Assembly (NCBI RefSeq): GCF_056746865.1
Contig: NZ_CM163382.1
Direction: 5' to 3' (one strand)
Length of the DNA: 64,000 bases
Shown: positions 4,081 through 9,636 of the stretch, piece after piece
Layout of the letters: each line of letters starts with the position of its first letter
Position numbering within the stretch: the first letter of the stretch is position 1
The notes under the pieces: generated by a model
The model's input: the letters and a program-made list of their open reading frames with translations, nothing else
What the model was told of the DNA's origin: nothing
Database searches by the model: none
Made by a program: the position numbers and the translations under genes

Positions 4081-4521
4081 GATACCCTTCTAACAATATC
4101 TACCTTCACCCCGTAAAAGATGGGTTTGGCAGCACACTTGCCCTATATCTACTCATTTTTACTGCAACAGGTTGAAATCTCAGCACTGTCAGAAAGCGCT
4201 GATGACTAAACAGCCCTGGGCCGGGCGATGTAACCATCATACAGAATCCTGATAGCGAAATATGGCGTGACTCGATACTTCACTCTGCAATGCGTTCCTT
4301 GATGAATTCGCAGGCCCGTGATACACGGGACAAGTCGCTGAATGACGACAATGTCCTGGAAATCAGCGAACCGCGTATCCGGAGTACATTTGAGCGACTG
4401 TACCAGAACATGAATGAGGCGTTTGGATTAGGTGATTATTAGTTGGGCTAAGCATTTTTGTATTATTATTTTCCGGTTGAGGGATATGGAGATATCGACA
4501 ACAACCGGAAAAAGTTTACGT

Positions 4522-5769
4522 CTATATTGCTGAAGGTACAGGCGTTTCCATAACTATTTGCTCGCGTTTTTTACTCAGGAAGAAAATGCCAAATAGCAAC
4601 ATCAGGCAGACAATACCCGAAATTGCGAAGAAAACTGTCTGGTAGCCTGCGTGGTCAAAGAGTATCCCAGTCGGCGTTGAAAGCAGCACAATCCCAAGCG
4701 AACTGGCAATTTGAAAACCAATCAGAAAGATCGTCGACGACAGGCGCTTATCAAAGTTTGCCACGCTGTATTTGAAGACGGATATGACACAAAGTGGAAC
4801 CTCAATGGCATGTAACAGCTTCACTAATGAAATAATCCAGGGGTTAACGAACAACGCGCAGGAAAGGATACGCAACGCCATAATCACAACACCGATAAGT
4901 AATGCATTTTTTGGCCCTACCCGATTCACAAAGAAAGGAATAATCGCCATGCACAGCGCTTCGAGTACCACCTGGAATGAGTTGAGATAACCATACAGGC
5001 GCGTTCCTACATCGTGTGATTCGAATAAACCTGCATAAAAGACAGGAAAGAGTTGTTGATCAAAAATGTTATAGAAAGACCACGTCCCCACAATAAATAT
5101 GACAAAAACCCAGAAGTTTCGATCCTTGAAAACTGCGATAAAATCCTCTTTTTTTACCCCTCCCGCATCCGCCGCTACACACTGGTGACCCTTATCTTTA
5201 AAACGCATGTTGATCATCATAAATACAGCGCCAAATAGCGAGACCAGCCAGAAGTTGATATGGGGACTGATACTAAAAAATATGCCGGCAAAGAACGCGC
5301 CAATAGCATAGCCAAAAGATCCCCAGGCGCGCGCTGTTCCATATTCGAAATGAAAATTTCGCGCCATTTTTTCAGTGAAGCTGTCAAGCAAACCACATCC
5401 CGCCAGATACCCCAGGCCAAAAAAGAGCGCCCCCAGAATTAGACCTACAGAAAAATTGCTTTGCAGTAACGGTTCATAAACGTAAATCATAAACGGTCCG
5501 GTCAAGACCAGAATGAAACTCATACACCAGATGAGCGGTTTCTTCAGACCGAGTTTATCCTGAACGATGCCGTAGAACATCATAAATAGAATGCTGGTAA
5601 ACTGGTTGACCGAATAAAGTGTACCTAATTCCGTCCCTGTTAATCCTAGATGTCCTTTCAGCCAAATAGCGTATAACGACCACCACAGCGACCAGGAAAT
5701 AAAAAAGAGAAATGAGTAACTGGATGCAAAACGATAGTACGCATTTCTGAATGGAATATTCAGTGCCAT
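4522..5769 (-). CDS. cscB: Sucrose:H+ symporter CscB (MFS, oligosaccharide:H+ symporter family)
   Basis: 415-aa 12-TM ORF; LacY-like MFS sequence recognised as CscB; adjacent to cscK/cscA/cscR. Confidence 0.85.
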   Translation of the reverse strand: MALNIPFRNAYYRFASSYSFLFFISWSLWWSLYAIWLKGHLGLTGTELGTLYSVNQFTSILFMMFYGIVQDKLGLKKPLIWCMSFILVLTGPFMIYVYEPLLQSNFSVGLILGALFFGLGYLAGCGLLDSFTEKMARNFHFEYGTARAWGSFGYAIGAFFAGIFFSISPHINFWLVSLFGAVFMMINMRFKDKGHQCVAADAGGVKKEDFIAVFKDRNFWVFVIFIVGTWSFYNIFDQQLFPVFYAGLFESHDVGTRLYGYLNSFQVVLEALCMAIIPFFVNRVGPKNALLIGVVIMALRILSCALFVNPWIISLVKLLHAIEVPLCVISVFKYSVANFDKRLSSTIFLIGFQIASSLGIVLLSTPTGILFDHAGYQTVFFAISGIVCLMLLFGIFFLSKKREQIVMETPVPSAI

Positions 5770-5830
5770 AATTACCTGCCCGTCGTTAAAAAATTCATGT
5801 CCTATTTAGAGATAAGAGCGGCCTCGCCGT

Positions 5831-6754
5831 TTACTTCTCACTTTCCAGTTCTTGTCGACATGGCAGCGCTGTCATTGCCCCTTTCGCTGTTACTGCAAGC
5901 GCTCCGCAACGTTGAGCGAGATCGATAATTCGTCGCATTTCTCTCTCATCTGTAGATAATCCCGAAGAGGACAGACCTGTGAGTAACCCGGCAACGAACG
6001 CATCTCCCGCCCCAGTGCTATCGACACAATTCACAGACATTCCAGCAAAATGGTGGACTTGTCCTCGATAACAGACCACCACCCCTTCTGCACCTTTAGT
6101 CACCAACAGCATGGCGATCTCATAATCTTTTGCCAGGGCGCATATATCCCGATCGTTCTGTGTTTTTCCACTGATAAGTCGCCATTCTTCTTCCGAGAGC
6201 TTGACGACATCCGCCAGTTGTAGCGCCTGCCGCAAACACAAGCGGAGCAAATGCTCGTCTTGCCATAGATCTTCACGAATATTGGGATCGAAGCTGACAA
6301 AACCTCCGGCATGCCGGATCGCCGTCATCGCAGTAAATGCGCTGGTACGCGAAGGCTCGGCAGACAACGCAATTGAACAGAGATGTAACCATTCGCCATG
6401 TCGCCAGCAGGGCAAGTCTGTCGTCTCTAAAAAAAGATCGGCACTGGGGCGGACCATAAACGTAAATGAACGTTCTCCTTGATCGTTCAGATCGACAAGC
6501 ACCGTGGATGTCCGGTGCCATTCATCTTGCTTCAGATACGTGATATCGACACCCTCAGTTAGCAGCGTTCTTTGCATTAACGCACCAAAAGGATCATCAC
6601 CGACCCGACCTATAAACCCACTTGTTCCGCCTAATCTGGCGATTCCCACCGCAACGTTAGCTGGCGCGCCGCCAGGACAAGGCAGTAGCCGCCCGTCTGA
6701 TTCTGGCAAGAGATCTACGACCGCATCCCCTAAAACCCATACTTTGGCTGACAT
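5831..6754 (-). CDS. cscK: Fructokinase CscK (ribokinase/pfkB family)
   Basis: 307-aa ORF with pfkB-family motifs (GGAPANVA near N-terminus, DSTGAGDAFVAG near C-terminus). Confidence 0.85.
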   Translation of the reverse strand: MSAKVWVLGDAVVDLLPESDGRLLPCPGGAPANVAVGIARLGGTSGFIGRVGDDPFGALMQRTLLTEGVDITYLKQDEWHRTSTVLVDLNDQGERSFTFMVRPSADLFLETTDLPCWRHGEWLHLCSIALSAEPSRTSAFTAMTAIRHAGGFVSFDPNIREDLWQDEHLLRLCLRQALQLADVVKLSEEEWRLISGKTQNDRDICALAKDYEIAMLLVTKGAEGVVVCYRGQVHHFAGMSVNCVDSTGAGDAFVAGLLTGLSSSGLSTDEREMRRIIDLAQRCGALAVTAKGAMTALPCRQELESEK

Positions 6755-8403: not shown

Positions 8404-8410
8404 CATAATA

Positions 8411-9406
8411 TCAGGTGGAACAACGGATCAACAGCGGGCAAGGGATCCGCGTCACTCTTCCCCCTTCACGACCTTCAATAATATGCAATGCAGCTTCCCG
8501 CCCGATAATGTCATGTGGAAGCTGAATTGTGGTCAGCGGCGGTAAAAACAGATGCCCGACGCCAACCAGATTATCAAAGCCCATTACGGCGACATCCTGC
8601 GGGATACGTACCCCCTTCGCCAGGAGAACCTGATAAGCGACAAAGGCTGCGCGATCGTTACCACATATCAGAACATCAAAATCTGGTTTGCCAGATTTGA
8701 AGTGGTCATTGAGTAAACTTGCGAGATCGGTGTAGTGATCATCACCTGTTGCCATGTGAAATTGTTTCACCTCAGCCAGATCTCGTCCAGCATCACGCCA
8801 GGCCTGCTCAAATCCCTGCCGACGATACCCTGTTGCCAACGCACTTTCCGGTAGCCAGAAGCATAACGGTTGACGATAGCCCGCCGCGAGCAAATGCTGT
8901 GTTGATTCATATTGTGCAGTGTAATCATCAGGGATATAACTGGGTAACGCTGGGTCATCCGCAACACAGTTCGCCAATACAATATTTTCACCATACAGAG
9001 ACTCAGGCAGCGTGATATGTCGCAGCCCCATTGTAGTATAGATAATGCCATCCGGACGGTGGGCAAGCAGCTGACGTGCCGCGCGGGCAGCGTCATCTTC
9101 AGAAAAAATATTGATTAAAAAACTATTCCAGCCGAACTCGCTGGCGGTTTGCTCAATGGCAAGCAGAATATCAACAGAGAAAGGAGTGGTAGCCGTGTCC
9201 TGCGCCAGCACGGCGAGAGTCGACGGCTTACGTCCTTGAGCGCGCATCTTACGGGCGGAAAGATCAGGAACATAATTCAGGGTCTGGATTGCCTGCAATA
9301 CGCGGTTACGCGTTGCAGGACGCACAGATTCTGCATTATGCATCACCCGGGAGACTGTCATCATCGACACTCCCGCCAGGCGTGCGACATCCTTTAATGA
9401 AGCCAT
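8411..9406 (-). CDS. cscR: LacI-family sucrose operon repressor CscR
   Basis: ORF with N-terminal HTH (MASLKDVARLAGVSMMTVSRV) and periplasmic-binding-protein-like fold; start trimmed from the longer 397-aa ORF to 331 aa. Confidence 0.8.
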   Translation of the reverse strand: MASLKDVARLAGVSMMTVSRVMHNAESVRPATRNRVLQAIQTLNYVPDLSARKMRAQGRKPSTLAVLAQDTATTPFSVDILLAIEQTASEFGWNSFLINIFSEDDAARAARQLLAHRPDGIIYTTMGLRHITLPESLYGENIVLANCVADDPALPSYIPDDYTAQYESTQHLLAAGYRQPLCFWLPESALATGYRRQGFEQAWRDAGRDLAEVKQFHMATGDDHYTDLASLLNDHFKSGKPDFDVLICGNDRAAFVAYQVLLAKGVRIPQDVAVMGFDNLVGVGHLFLPPLTTIQLPHDIIGREAALHIIEGREGGRVTRIPCPLLIRCST

Positions 9407-9636
9407 ACCCAAGCCGTTTGCCGTAAAACGGGCACTGTAGCAGAAACAGACGTCACTGGCGAGATCCAACGATATTCTCGACGCCCTATCACCCGACACG
9501 GCAATACAATAAAAAATAACAATAATTCCCGGACAATTGTACCCAATTCCGCCTCTGTTCTCGCCAACGAGTAACCATGTAGGCAAGTAGGTAAAACATG
9601 CCAACTGGCATCGCCAATCTGGAGAAGAAAATATAA

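Follow-up and report, generated by a model that had tools for sequence, protein, structure and literature searches.

A csc sucrose regulon at argW occupying the site of dsdC and the start of dsdX in an Escherichia coli chromosome

Layout and edges of the argW-csc-dsdA locus

The genes and features found around argW in the window, the 64-kb stretch of DNA that was analysed, are listed in Table 1. Directly 3' of this tRNA gene lies a block of 5,569 bp (4081-9649) that carries four csc genes in the order cscB(-), cscK(-), cscA(+), cscR(-), as the initial annotation had proposed; ARAGORN and Rfam both place the end of the tRNA at 4080, and the ORFs match csc families. The junctions 4080/4081 and 9649/9650 were obtained by alignment with S3, a dsd-intact strain without prophage, in which identity stops at the 3' CCA of the tRNA (4080) and restarts at 9650 within dsdX. 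The block had first been given as 4081-9636, of which the left edge stands, whereas the right edge is 13 bp short of the true end at 9649. The last 72 codons of dsdX follow the block, and then intact dsdA, so that the csc genes fill the space held in dsd-positive strains by dsdC and the first 373 dsdX codons. The absence of dsdC and the reduction of dsdX to its 3' end, both claimed at the outset, are borne out by tblastn and by the S3 alignment. No DsdC was found by tblastn in the 64 kb, the sole match being the LysR paralogue yfeR with 28% identity. The dsdX remnant covers positions 370-440 of 440 of Pfam GntP_permease and bears the RefSeq note 'missing N-terminus', and the dsdA product is 98.9% identical to DsdA of E. 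coli W. Intact copies of dsdC and dsdX, looked for by tblastn at the locus itself and elsewhere in the window, were rejected, as only DsdX residues 374-445 are recovered. The initial annotation had further described a K-12 arrangement including CPS-53 as replaced, which holds for dsdC and dsdX but not for CPS-53, since argW is free of prophage in the present strain, its phage attachment site being simply vacant.

Table 1. Features of the window from argW to dsdA, with coordinates and supporting evidence
Feature	Position	Strand	Evidence or remark
argW, tRNA-Arg (anticodon CCT)	4006-4080	+	ARAGORN; Rfam RF00005, 63 bits
argW-cscB spacer, 441 bp, non-coding relic DNA	4081-4521	none	specific to csc-positive strains
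Decayed internal DUF4942 gene fragment, residues 76-151 of 281-aa protein	4206-4433	+	tblastn, 50% identity, E = 8e-16
cscB, sucrose:H+ symporter, LacY family, 415 aa	4522-5769	-	TIGR00882, 593 bits (cut-off 220)
cscK, fructokinase, 307 aa	5831-6754	-	NF006957, 507 bits (cut-off 450)
Divergent cscK-cscA control region	6755-6969	none	GC 0.29
cscA, cytoplasmic sucrose hydrolase (GH32 invertase), 477 aa	6970-8403	+	TIGR01322 (scrB family), 481 bits
cscR, LacI-family csc repressor, 331 aa	8411-9406	-	Pfam LacI HTH and Peripla_BP_1
cscR-dsdX remnant spacer	9407-9649	none	right edge from S3 alignment
dsdX 3' remnant, last 72 of 445 codons, pseudogene	9650-9867	+	tblastn, DsdX residues 374-445, 92% identity
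dsdA, D-serine ammonia-lyase, intact, 443 aa	9885-11216	+	TIGR02035, 812 bits

The 3' end of argW forms the left edge of the block and is also the attachment site for argW prophages. The GC content of the block is 0.480 compared with a mean of 0.484 for the 64-kb window, and its GC3 values of 0.47-0.51 resemble those of the neighbouring genes, indicating no compositional signature in either measure. Searches of the 64 kb with a 25-mer and a 16-mer of the argW 3' end, allowing up to three mismatches, gave no further copy, and no integrase ORF lies within 4081-9649, where no room is left for one; the ORFs and these searches thus agree with the initial annotation, which had seen neither an integrase nor a direct repeat of the tRNA end. 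Direct or inverted repeats bracketing 4081-9649 are likewise absent, the only pairs detected being short ones at chance level and the operator pair described below. Between 3800 and 10000 there are no further RNA genes, the tRNA alone having passed the Rfam gathering threshold.

The spacer between argW and cscB contains the fragment of a DUF4942 gene, which matches Pfam PF13708 with 27.9 bits over profile positions 18-62 of 190, and RefSeq annotates a 50-aa ORF at 4290-4442 inside the same spacer. The fragment has approximately 73% DNA identity to full DUF4942 genes, which stand at the end of CP4-type islands, after cbtA, DUF5983 and DUF957 in that order. A full-length parent of high identity was not found, copies away from the locus being only about 72-75% identical. 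We take the fragment to be, probably, z3622 of EDL933. The fragment could also be left over from an earlier argW island with no relation to csc.

Origin of the block

The block is very probably the chromosomal non-PTS csc regulon at its standard E. coli site, a reading that includes an origin from an element at argW. An integrative element would have entered the 3' end of argW by site-specific recombination, explaining why divergence starts at the first base after CCA. Deletions would afterwards have taken away the integrase, the distal att site and most of the backbone, together with dsdC and the start of dsdX, leaving the internal DUF4942 gene fragment as the remaining trace of the element, and homologous recombination in the flanks may have let the immobilised csc allele spread and persist. 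An argW-integrating mobile element for csc was reportedly, perhaps, already proposed by Jahreis in 2002. In E. coli W and in a divergent Escherichia lineage (L008), the sequence starting at position 4081 is directly adjoined by phage attR copies of the argW 3' end; in E. coli W, whose prophage occupies argW, the match to the window resumes at 4066, the first 15 nt being the attR copy of the tRNA end. Because an integrase, att or flanking repeats and a GC deviation are absent, the mobile-element step rests on the position of the junction and on one 76-residue pseudogene fragment.

A csc module with the same order, cscR-cscA-cscK-cscB, is present in the Citrobacter amalonaticus group (L009 and L013), where it shows 80-83% DNA identity and 82-92% protein identity to window positions 4454-9447. 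Judged by this comparison, the transferable core would be 4454-9447; similarity to Citrobacter begins at 4454, placing the argW-cscB spacer up to 4453 outside the module. The site in Citrobacter is different: ytfQRT-yjfF lies on one side and an MCP gene/fbp-mpl on the other, and a tRNA, a DUF4942 relic and dsd genes are absent from the surroundings. The adjacent core genes fbp-mpl are 87.5% identical to those of E. coli, and since the csc module is more diverged than these neighbours, it does not appear to have been transferred recently from E. coli.

Alternatively, csc may have arrived through illegitimate recombination or recombination mediated by the flanks, as could follow generalised transduction or conjugation, with the DNA from argW to the middle of dsdX replaced in one step and the DUF4942 fragment being debris of an unrelated earlier CP4-type island. 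This is consistent with the lack of an integrase, an att repeat or bracketing repeats, with a Citrobacter module that sits between yjfF and the MCP gene/fbp without tRNA or island genes, and with the position of the DUF4942 fragment outside the core shared with Citrobacter, and argW is much used for integration, as by the P22-like prophage in W and by torI-type prophages. We nevertheless consider such an arrival unlikely, as the left breakpoint coincides with the last base of the tRNA, which is expected of a site-specific event and would otherwise be a coincidence, and at the locus the DUF4942 relic always accompanies csc (2,623 versus 2,645 genomes). Entry of an integrative element at argW thus remains the preferred explanation.

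Predicted function and control of the csc genes and the loss of D-serine genes

The functions of the genes in the block are predicted from sequence together with knowledge of their families, and nothing was found to contradict the predicted identity and function of csc. As the initial annotation had it, all four ORFs match csc proteins; each is full length without internal stops, and amino acid identity to E. coli W is 97.9-99.5%. CscB is 99.5% identical (2 substitutions), CscA 97.9% (10 substitutions) and CscR 99.1% (3 substitutions), whereas CscK is 99% identical over 304 aa with a C-terminus three residues longer here. PGAP labels cscB, cscK, cscA and cscR on a 99.1%-identical copy in strain cS51a. 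CscB matches TIGR00882, an oligosaccharide:H+ MFS transporter family, and would import sucrose together with a proton. CscA, in which the Pfam domains Glyco_hydro_32N and Glyco_hydro_32C are both present, is predicted to hydrolyze sucrose to glucose and fructose, and the released fructose would be phosphorylated by CscK. The ATG of cscA at 6970 has an AGGA 8 nt upstream. A pseudogenised csc cluster was considered and rejected, every ORF being intact.

The genes form two divergent operons, cscKB and cscA, that share an intergenic region. Within it the 12-bp palindrome GTTAACGTTAAC occurs twice, at 6860-6871 and 6924-6935 with a spacing of 64 bp, as found by repeat search and direct reading, and between both copies there is a CRP-like site, TGTGA-N6-TCGCA, at 6875-6890. 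The palindromes are read as putative CscR operators; CscR, being of LacI type, is expected to bind to this pair flanking the cscA promoter, and the CRP-like site suggests that csc expression may depend on cAMP-CRP. The palindrome pair and the CRP-like site agree with the csc control region as PMC11251922 describes it after Jahreis 2002, with two 12-bp inverted repeats and a Crp site. A scan for consensus promoters gave one match compared with 8.7 expected and was uninformative.

E. coli W grows on sucrose through csc (PMC3032704), and for wild csc strains such as EC3132 growth on low sucrose is reported to be slow (PMC11251922). It is very improbable that the csc genes in the present strain are instead decaying and without function, as those of most Shigella are, the strain being sucrose-negative and the loss of dsdCX alone then mattering. 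Such a reading can point to csc being defective in nearly all Shigella and to the slow growth mediated by csc (PMC11251922), but it is opposed by four full-length ORFs closely identical to those of the sucrose-growing E. coli W, by intact operators and an intact CRP-like site, and by the lack of any IS insertion in the present block, in contrast to NZ_LR882990.1, where the csc region is interrupted by a TnpB-family gene.

The activator DsdC and the transporter DsdX are missing from the strain because the csc block, predicted to be functional, sits in their place. The replacement of dsdCX by csc and its consequences for D-serine have been published (PMC3032704, PMC4366372, PMC7486766), and dsdA in this arrangement has been reported to be transcriptionally silent (PMC7486766). 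The published trade-off, a sucrose-positive phenotype with loss of D-serine use and tolerance, is therefore predicted here as well, the locus exchanging one trait, sucrose catabolism, for another, D-serine catabolism and tolerance. In the literature the loss with respect to D-serine has been tied to the preference of strains for an intestinal or a urinary niche, and also to the repression by D-serine of the LEE type III secretion system in EHEC.

Distribution, age and comparison with known systems

The comparison with csc-positive genomes called for by the initial annotation shows the same 6.1-kb arrangement with both junctions in 2,645 of 5,426 complete E. coli genomes (49%). Among the complete E. 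coli genomes the argW-cscB spacer is found at a coverage of at least 80% in 2,623, and the cscR-dsdX spacer, which has no paralogues elsewhere in E. coli genomes, is found in 2,691. The STEC-collection strain 2017C-4173W12 has 100% identity over the csc arrangement and is the closest to the present strain over the first 14 kb and the remaining window. In the divergent Escherichia lineage mentioned above, which is approximately 90% identical, the argW-cscB spacer is shortened and about 69% similar, and the dsdX junction is identical to the present one, indicating that the csc allele is old. Divergence of this lineage is alike in the island (csc genes, 89-93%) and in the flanks (dsdA/emrY/emrK, 89-93%), and together with the shared junction this supports the earlier impression of an island that is fixed and old. 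It is possible, and we suggest it tentatively, that the replacement of dsdCX by csc was a single ancient event, with a CP4-type argW island as the vehicle and DUF4942 as its last trace, and that it persists as a long-lived, possibly trans-species, Escherichia polymorphism; if true, this would point to balancing selection acting over a long time, with sucrose use on one side and the use or sensing of D-serine on the other. The reverse, that csc at argW is ancestral in Escherichia and dsd-positive strains regained dsdC-dsdX, would fit the junction shared with the divergent lineage and the equal divergence of island and flanks, but is scarcely credible, as the truncated dsdX of csc-positive strains is collinear with the intact gene and intact dsdX thus predates the csc junction. 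The dsd-positive state appears to be the older one at the argW site, with both alleles coexisting since.

Like the CP4-type islands (CP4-6, CP4-44, CP4-57 and relatives), the csc block lies directly 3' of a tRNA gene, varies in its presence between strains and retains a piece of DUF4942. It thus shows the insertion at a tRNA 3' end, the variable presence and the backbone remnant of a tRNA island. In contrast to CP4-type islands, it lacks an integrase, an att direct repeat of the tRNA end at its distal side, toxin-antitoxin or other backbone genes and a deviant base composition, and it is at most a relic of such an island. The PTS-dependent scr regulon (pUR400, Klebsiella, E. coli B2) resembles the block in sucrose use, a GH32 hydrolase, a fructokinase and a LacI-type repressor. 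However, scr relies on a PTS enzyme II (ScrA) together with a porin (ScrY), and its substrate for hydrolysis is sucrose-6-phosphate, whereas in the present block transport is assigned to a LacY-type symporter and genes for a PTS component and a porin are absent.

The argW-csc-dsdX arrangement has been published for EC3132, O157:H7 EDL933, E. coli W and strains of phylogroups B1, D and E (PMC3032704, PMC4366372, PMC7486766, PMC11251922), in papers that cite Jahreis 2002 and Moritz & Welch 2006, and the island type is thus, as initially stated, one already described. The csc island at argW is real but ordinary and its interpretation already published; for the present window it marks the strain as an E. 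coli that is csc-positive and dsdCX-negative, and raises no new question. The csc regulon of EC3132, W and O157:H7 EDL933 (z3623-z3626) at the argW-dsdXA locus agrees with the block in its four genes, their order and orientation, in the pair of 12-bp operators with the CRP-like site, and in the junctions at argW and within dsdX. Whereas W and O157:H7 carry a prophage at argW and the present strain does not, nothing substantial differs within the csc locus itself apart from a few amino acid substitutions relative to W, whose locus is 98% identical in DNA to window positions 4066-10000.

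Gene content of the csc block

The four ORFs of the csc sucrose-utilisation block between argW and a truncated dsdX match csc protein families and are nearly identical to CscB, CscK, CscA, and CscR of the sucrose-positive E. coli W (99.5, 99.0, 97.9, and 99.1% identity, respectively), which bears out their reading as csc proteins in the initial annotation. All four are full length with zero internal stops, and PGAP names cscB, cscK, cscA, and cscR on a copy 99.1% identical to the block. All sequence-level defining features of the csc regulon are present in the window and, judged by its sequence, the block belongs to the E. 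coli csc regulon and occupies the canonical argW-dsdX' position.

Features of the argW-dsdA region, in window coordinates
Feature	Coordinates	Strand	Product	Evidence
argW	4006-4080	+	tRNA-Arg(CCT)	ARAGORN, confirmed by Rfam
cscB	4522-5769	-	415 aa, LacY-type oligosaccharide:H+ symporter	TIGR00882, 593 bits (NCBIfam)
cscK	5831-6754	-	307 aa, fructokinase	NF006957, 507 bits (cut-off 450)
cscA	6970-8403	+	477 aa (RefSeq start), GH32 sucrose hydrolase	TIGR01322; Glyco_hydro_32N + 32C
cscR	8411-9406	-	331 aa, LacI-family repressor	NCBIfam/Pfam
dsdX remnant	9649-9867		72-codon ORF, GntP/DsdX permease C-terminal end	Profile positions 370-440 of 440
dsdA	9885-11216		443-aa ORF, D-serine ammonia-lyase	TIGR02035, 812 bits

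From family knowledge, sucrose would be taken up together with a proton by CscB and hydrolyzed by CscA, with the fructose phosphorylated by CscK and the glucose passing to glucokinase, the gene for which (glk) also lies within the window. The growth of W on sucrose has been ascribed to the csc regulon (PMC3032704). One paper labels CscA a "sucrose phosphorylase"; the GH32 matches favor a hydrolase.

Junctions and origin of the block

The junctions were mapped by aligning the window with S3, a prophage-free strain with the arrangement argW-dsdC-dsdX-dsdA. Identity to S3 ends abruptly at 4080, the final base of the tRNA, and restarts at 9650, within dsdX, so that the block comprises 4081-9649 (5,569 bp). 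Of the limits first proposed, 4081-9636, the left edge is thereby upheld, whereas the right edge falls 13 bp short. A tblastn search with S3 DsdX matched only residues 374-445, and the sole match to S3 DsdC in the 64 kb was the LysR paralogue yfeR (28% identical). The proposed replacement of dsdC and the 5' part of dsdX thus holds, with no intact copy of either gene found in the 64 kb.

As DsdC and DsdX have been lost, dsdA lacks its activator. In this arrangement dsdA is reported to be silent and the strains to be D-serine-sensitive, and deletions removing cscR can reactivate dsdA via read-through from cscAp or z3622p (PMC7486766; PMC4366372). The dsdA gene of the window is intact, although reported silent in csc-positive strains; its product is one residue longer than the 442-aa DsdA of W and S3 and differs from both at the C-terminal end (E435 and an extra S443), with six differences from W in total.

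No integrase ORF is present in the block, neither the 25-mer nor the 16-mer from the argW 3' end recurs in the 64 kb with up to 3 mismatches, and no repeats bracket 4081-9649, in agreement with the initial annotation, whose description of the island as fixed and old is justified by these missing mobility signatures. The composition does not deviate either (the block and the window have a GC of 0.480 and 0.484, respectively, and GC3 is ordinary). In contrast to an active tRNA-linked integrative island, the block thus has no integrase, attachment repeat, or compositional signature, and is at most a relic of one. The 441-bp argW-cscB spacer contains an internal DUF4942 gene fragment (4206-4433) corresponding to residues 76-151 of 281 (50% amino acid identity, E = 8e-16) and sharing ~73% DNA identity with full-length copies. 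In CP4-type integrative islands the full-length gene comes last, after cbtA, DUF5983, and DUF957, and such a relic fits a breakpoint at the exact tRNA end. Together, the relic and the breakpoint suggest the involvement of an element that integrated at argW and has since decayed; such an element had reportedly been proposed already by Jahreis in 2002.

csc loci in other species

A CscB scan of species-representative genomes returned nine loci. In L008, a divergent member of Escherichia that carries the label E. coli SCPM-O-B-8794, the csc genes are accompanied by the end of a torI-type prophage, an argW attR of 15 nt, and a shortened, ~69%-similar spacer, and the csc/dsdX junction is identical to that of E. 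coli. Its csc genes and the flanking dsdA, emrY, and emrK are equally diverged (both 89-93% nucleotide identity), indicating that the csc allele is about as old as the separation of the E. coli and L008 lineages. The dsdX remnant of L008 has an extra 103-bp deletion (6102-6110 in L008; window 9660-9762) with TGC microhomology, which takes out the dsdA promoter position given in PMC7486766, 115 bp upstream of the gene. In Escherichia sp. MOD1-EC7003 (L007, 1-1560) the csc module is 95% identical and its cscR side joins yfdY/lpxP directly, at approximately window 9516-9523. This joint is a secondary deletion, lacking ~12 kb from dsdX'-dsdA through emrYK, evgAS, and the oxalate genes to ypdI.

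Two genomes labelled Citrobacter amalonaticus (L009 and L013, the latter with its module at 6364-11251) have the order cscR-cscA-cscK-cscB as in E. coli, flanked by ytfQRT-yjfF on one side and a truncated MCP gene/fbp-mpl on the other, at a site with no neighboring tRNA. Similarity (80-83% nucleotide identity) is limited to window 4454-9447, which by this extent is the core csc unit. Given that the adjoining fbp-mpl core genes share 87.5% identity with E. coli, the more diverged csc genes are not a recent E. coli export. Because Table 2 of PMC11251922 gives a cscA frequency of 0% for the RefSeq genomes of C. amalonaticus, the two may belong to related species, e.g. C. farmeri or C. telavivensis. 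Five Rosenbergiella loci (Erwiniaceae; L010-L012, L014, and L015) carry a csc-like cluster with 59-65% protein identity, ordered cscR, cscA, cscB, then cscK on the opposite strand, so the non-PTS csc pathway reaches beyond Enterobacteriaceae.

Frequency and relation to described csc systems

With 3900-10000 as the megablast query, 2,645 of 5,426 complete E. coli genomes had the arrangement at one locus that spans 80% or more of the query and hence includes both junctions; over this interval strain 2017C-4173W12 matches at 100% identity. In genomes with a prophage at argW, such as O157:H7 and W, the match begins at 4058-4066, where 15-23 nt of the tRNA 3' end, copied as attR, directly precede the sequence found in the window. 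In the window itself no phage occupies the attachment site.

Elsewhere in the window, an IS200C copy of ~709 bp (29941-30649; tnpA ORF 30048-30557, minus strand) lies inside ypdA, the sensor kinase gene of the YpdA/YpdB two-component system, which should thereby be inactivated. The insertion looks strain-specific, since it is missing from the otherwise 99.99% identical 2017C-4173W12 and none of the 12 best-ranked matches among the 5,426 genomes covers it with both flanks. Between fadL and mlaA, a 415-aa ORF of low GC (523-1770, plus strand; 0.345) with no match in Pfam or NCBIfam is a diverged yfdF allele, 79-86% identical to the 352-aa YfdF of W, whose residues 79-145 match it twice, indicating an internal duplication of ~66 aa.

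The replacement of dsdC and the 5' part of dsdX by cscBKAR at argW is already known, having been documented explicitly in EC3132, EDL933, and W and in phylogroups B1, D, and E (PMC11251922, PMC4366372, PMC7486766, PMC3032704); this confirms the earlier view of it as accessory but not novel. The AT-rich cscK-cscA intergenic region (215 bp) contains the palindrome GTTAACGTTAAC twice, at 6860-6871 and 6924-6935, with a CRP-like site (TGTGA-N6-TCGCA, 6875-6890) between the two copies. As expected from family knowledge, both csc operons would be repressed by CscR and activated by cAMP-CRP. In the account relayed by PMC11251922, Jahreis et al. 2002 described two 12-bp inverted repeats and a Crp site in csc, and the two palindromes and the CRP-like site of the window agree with that part of the description.
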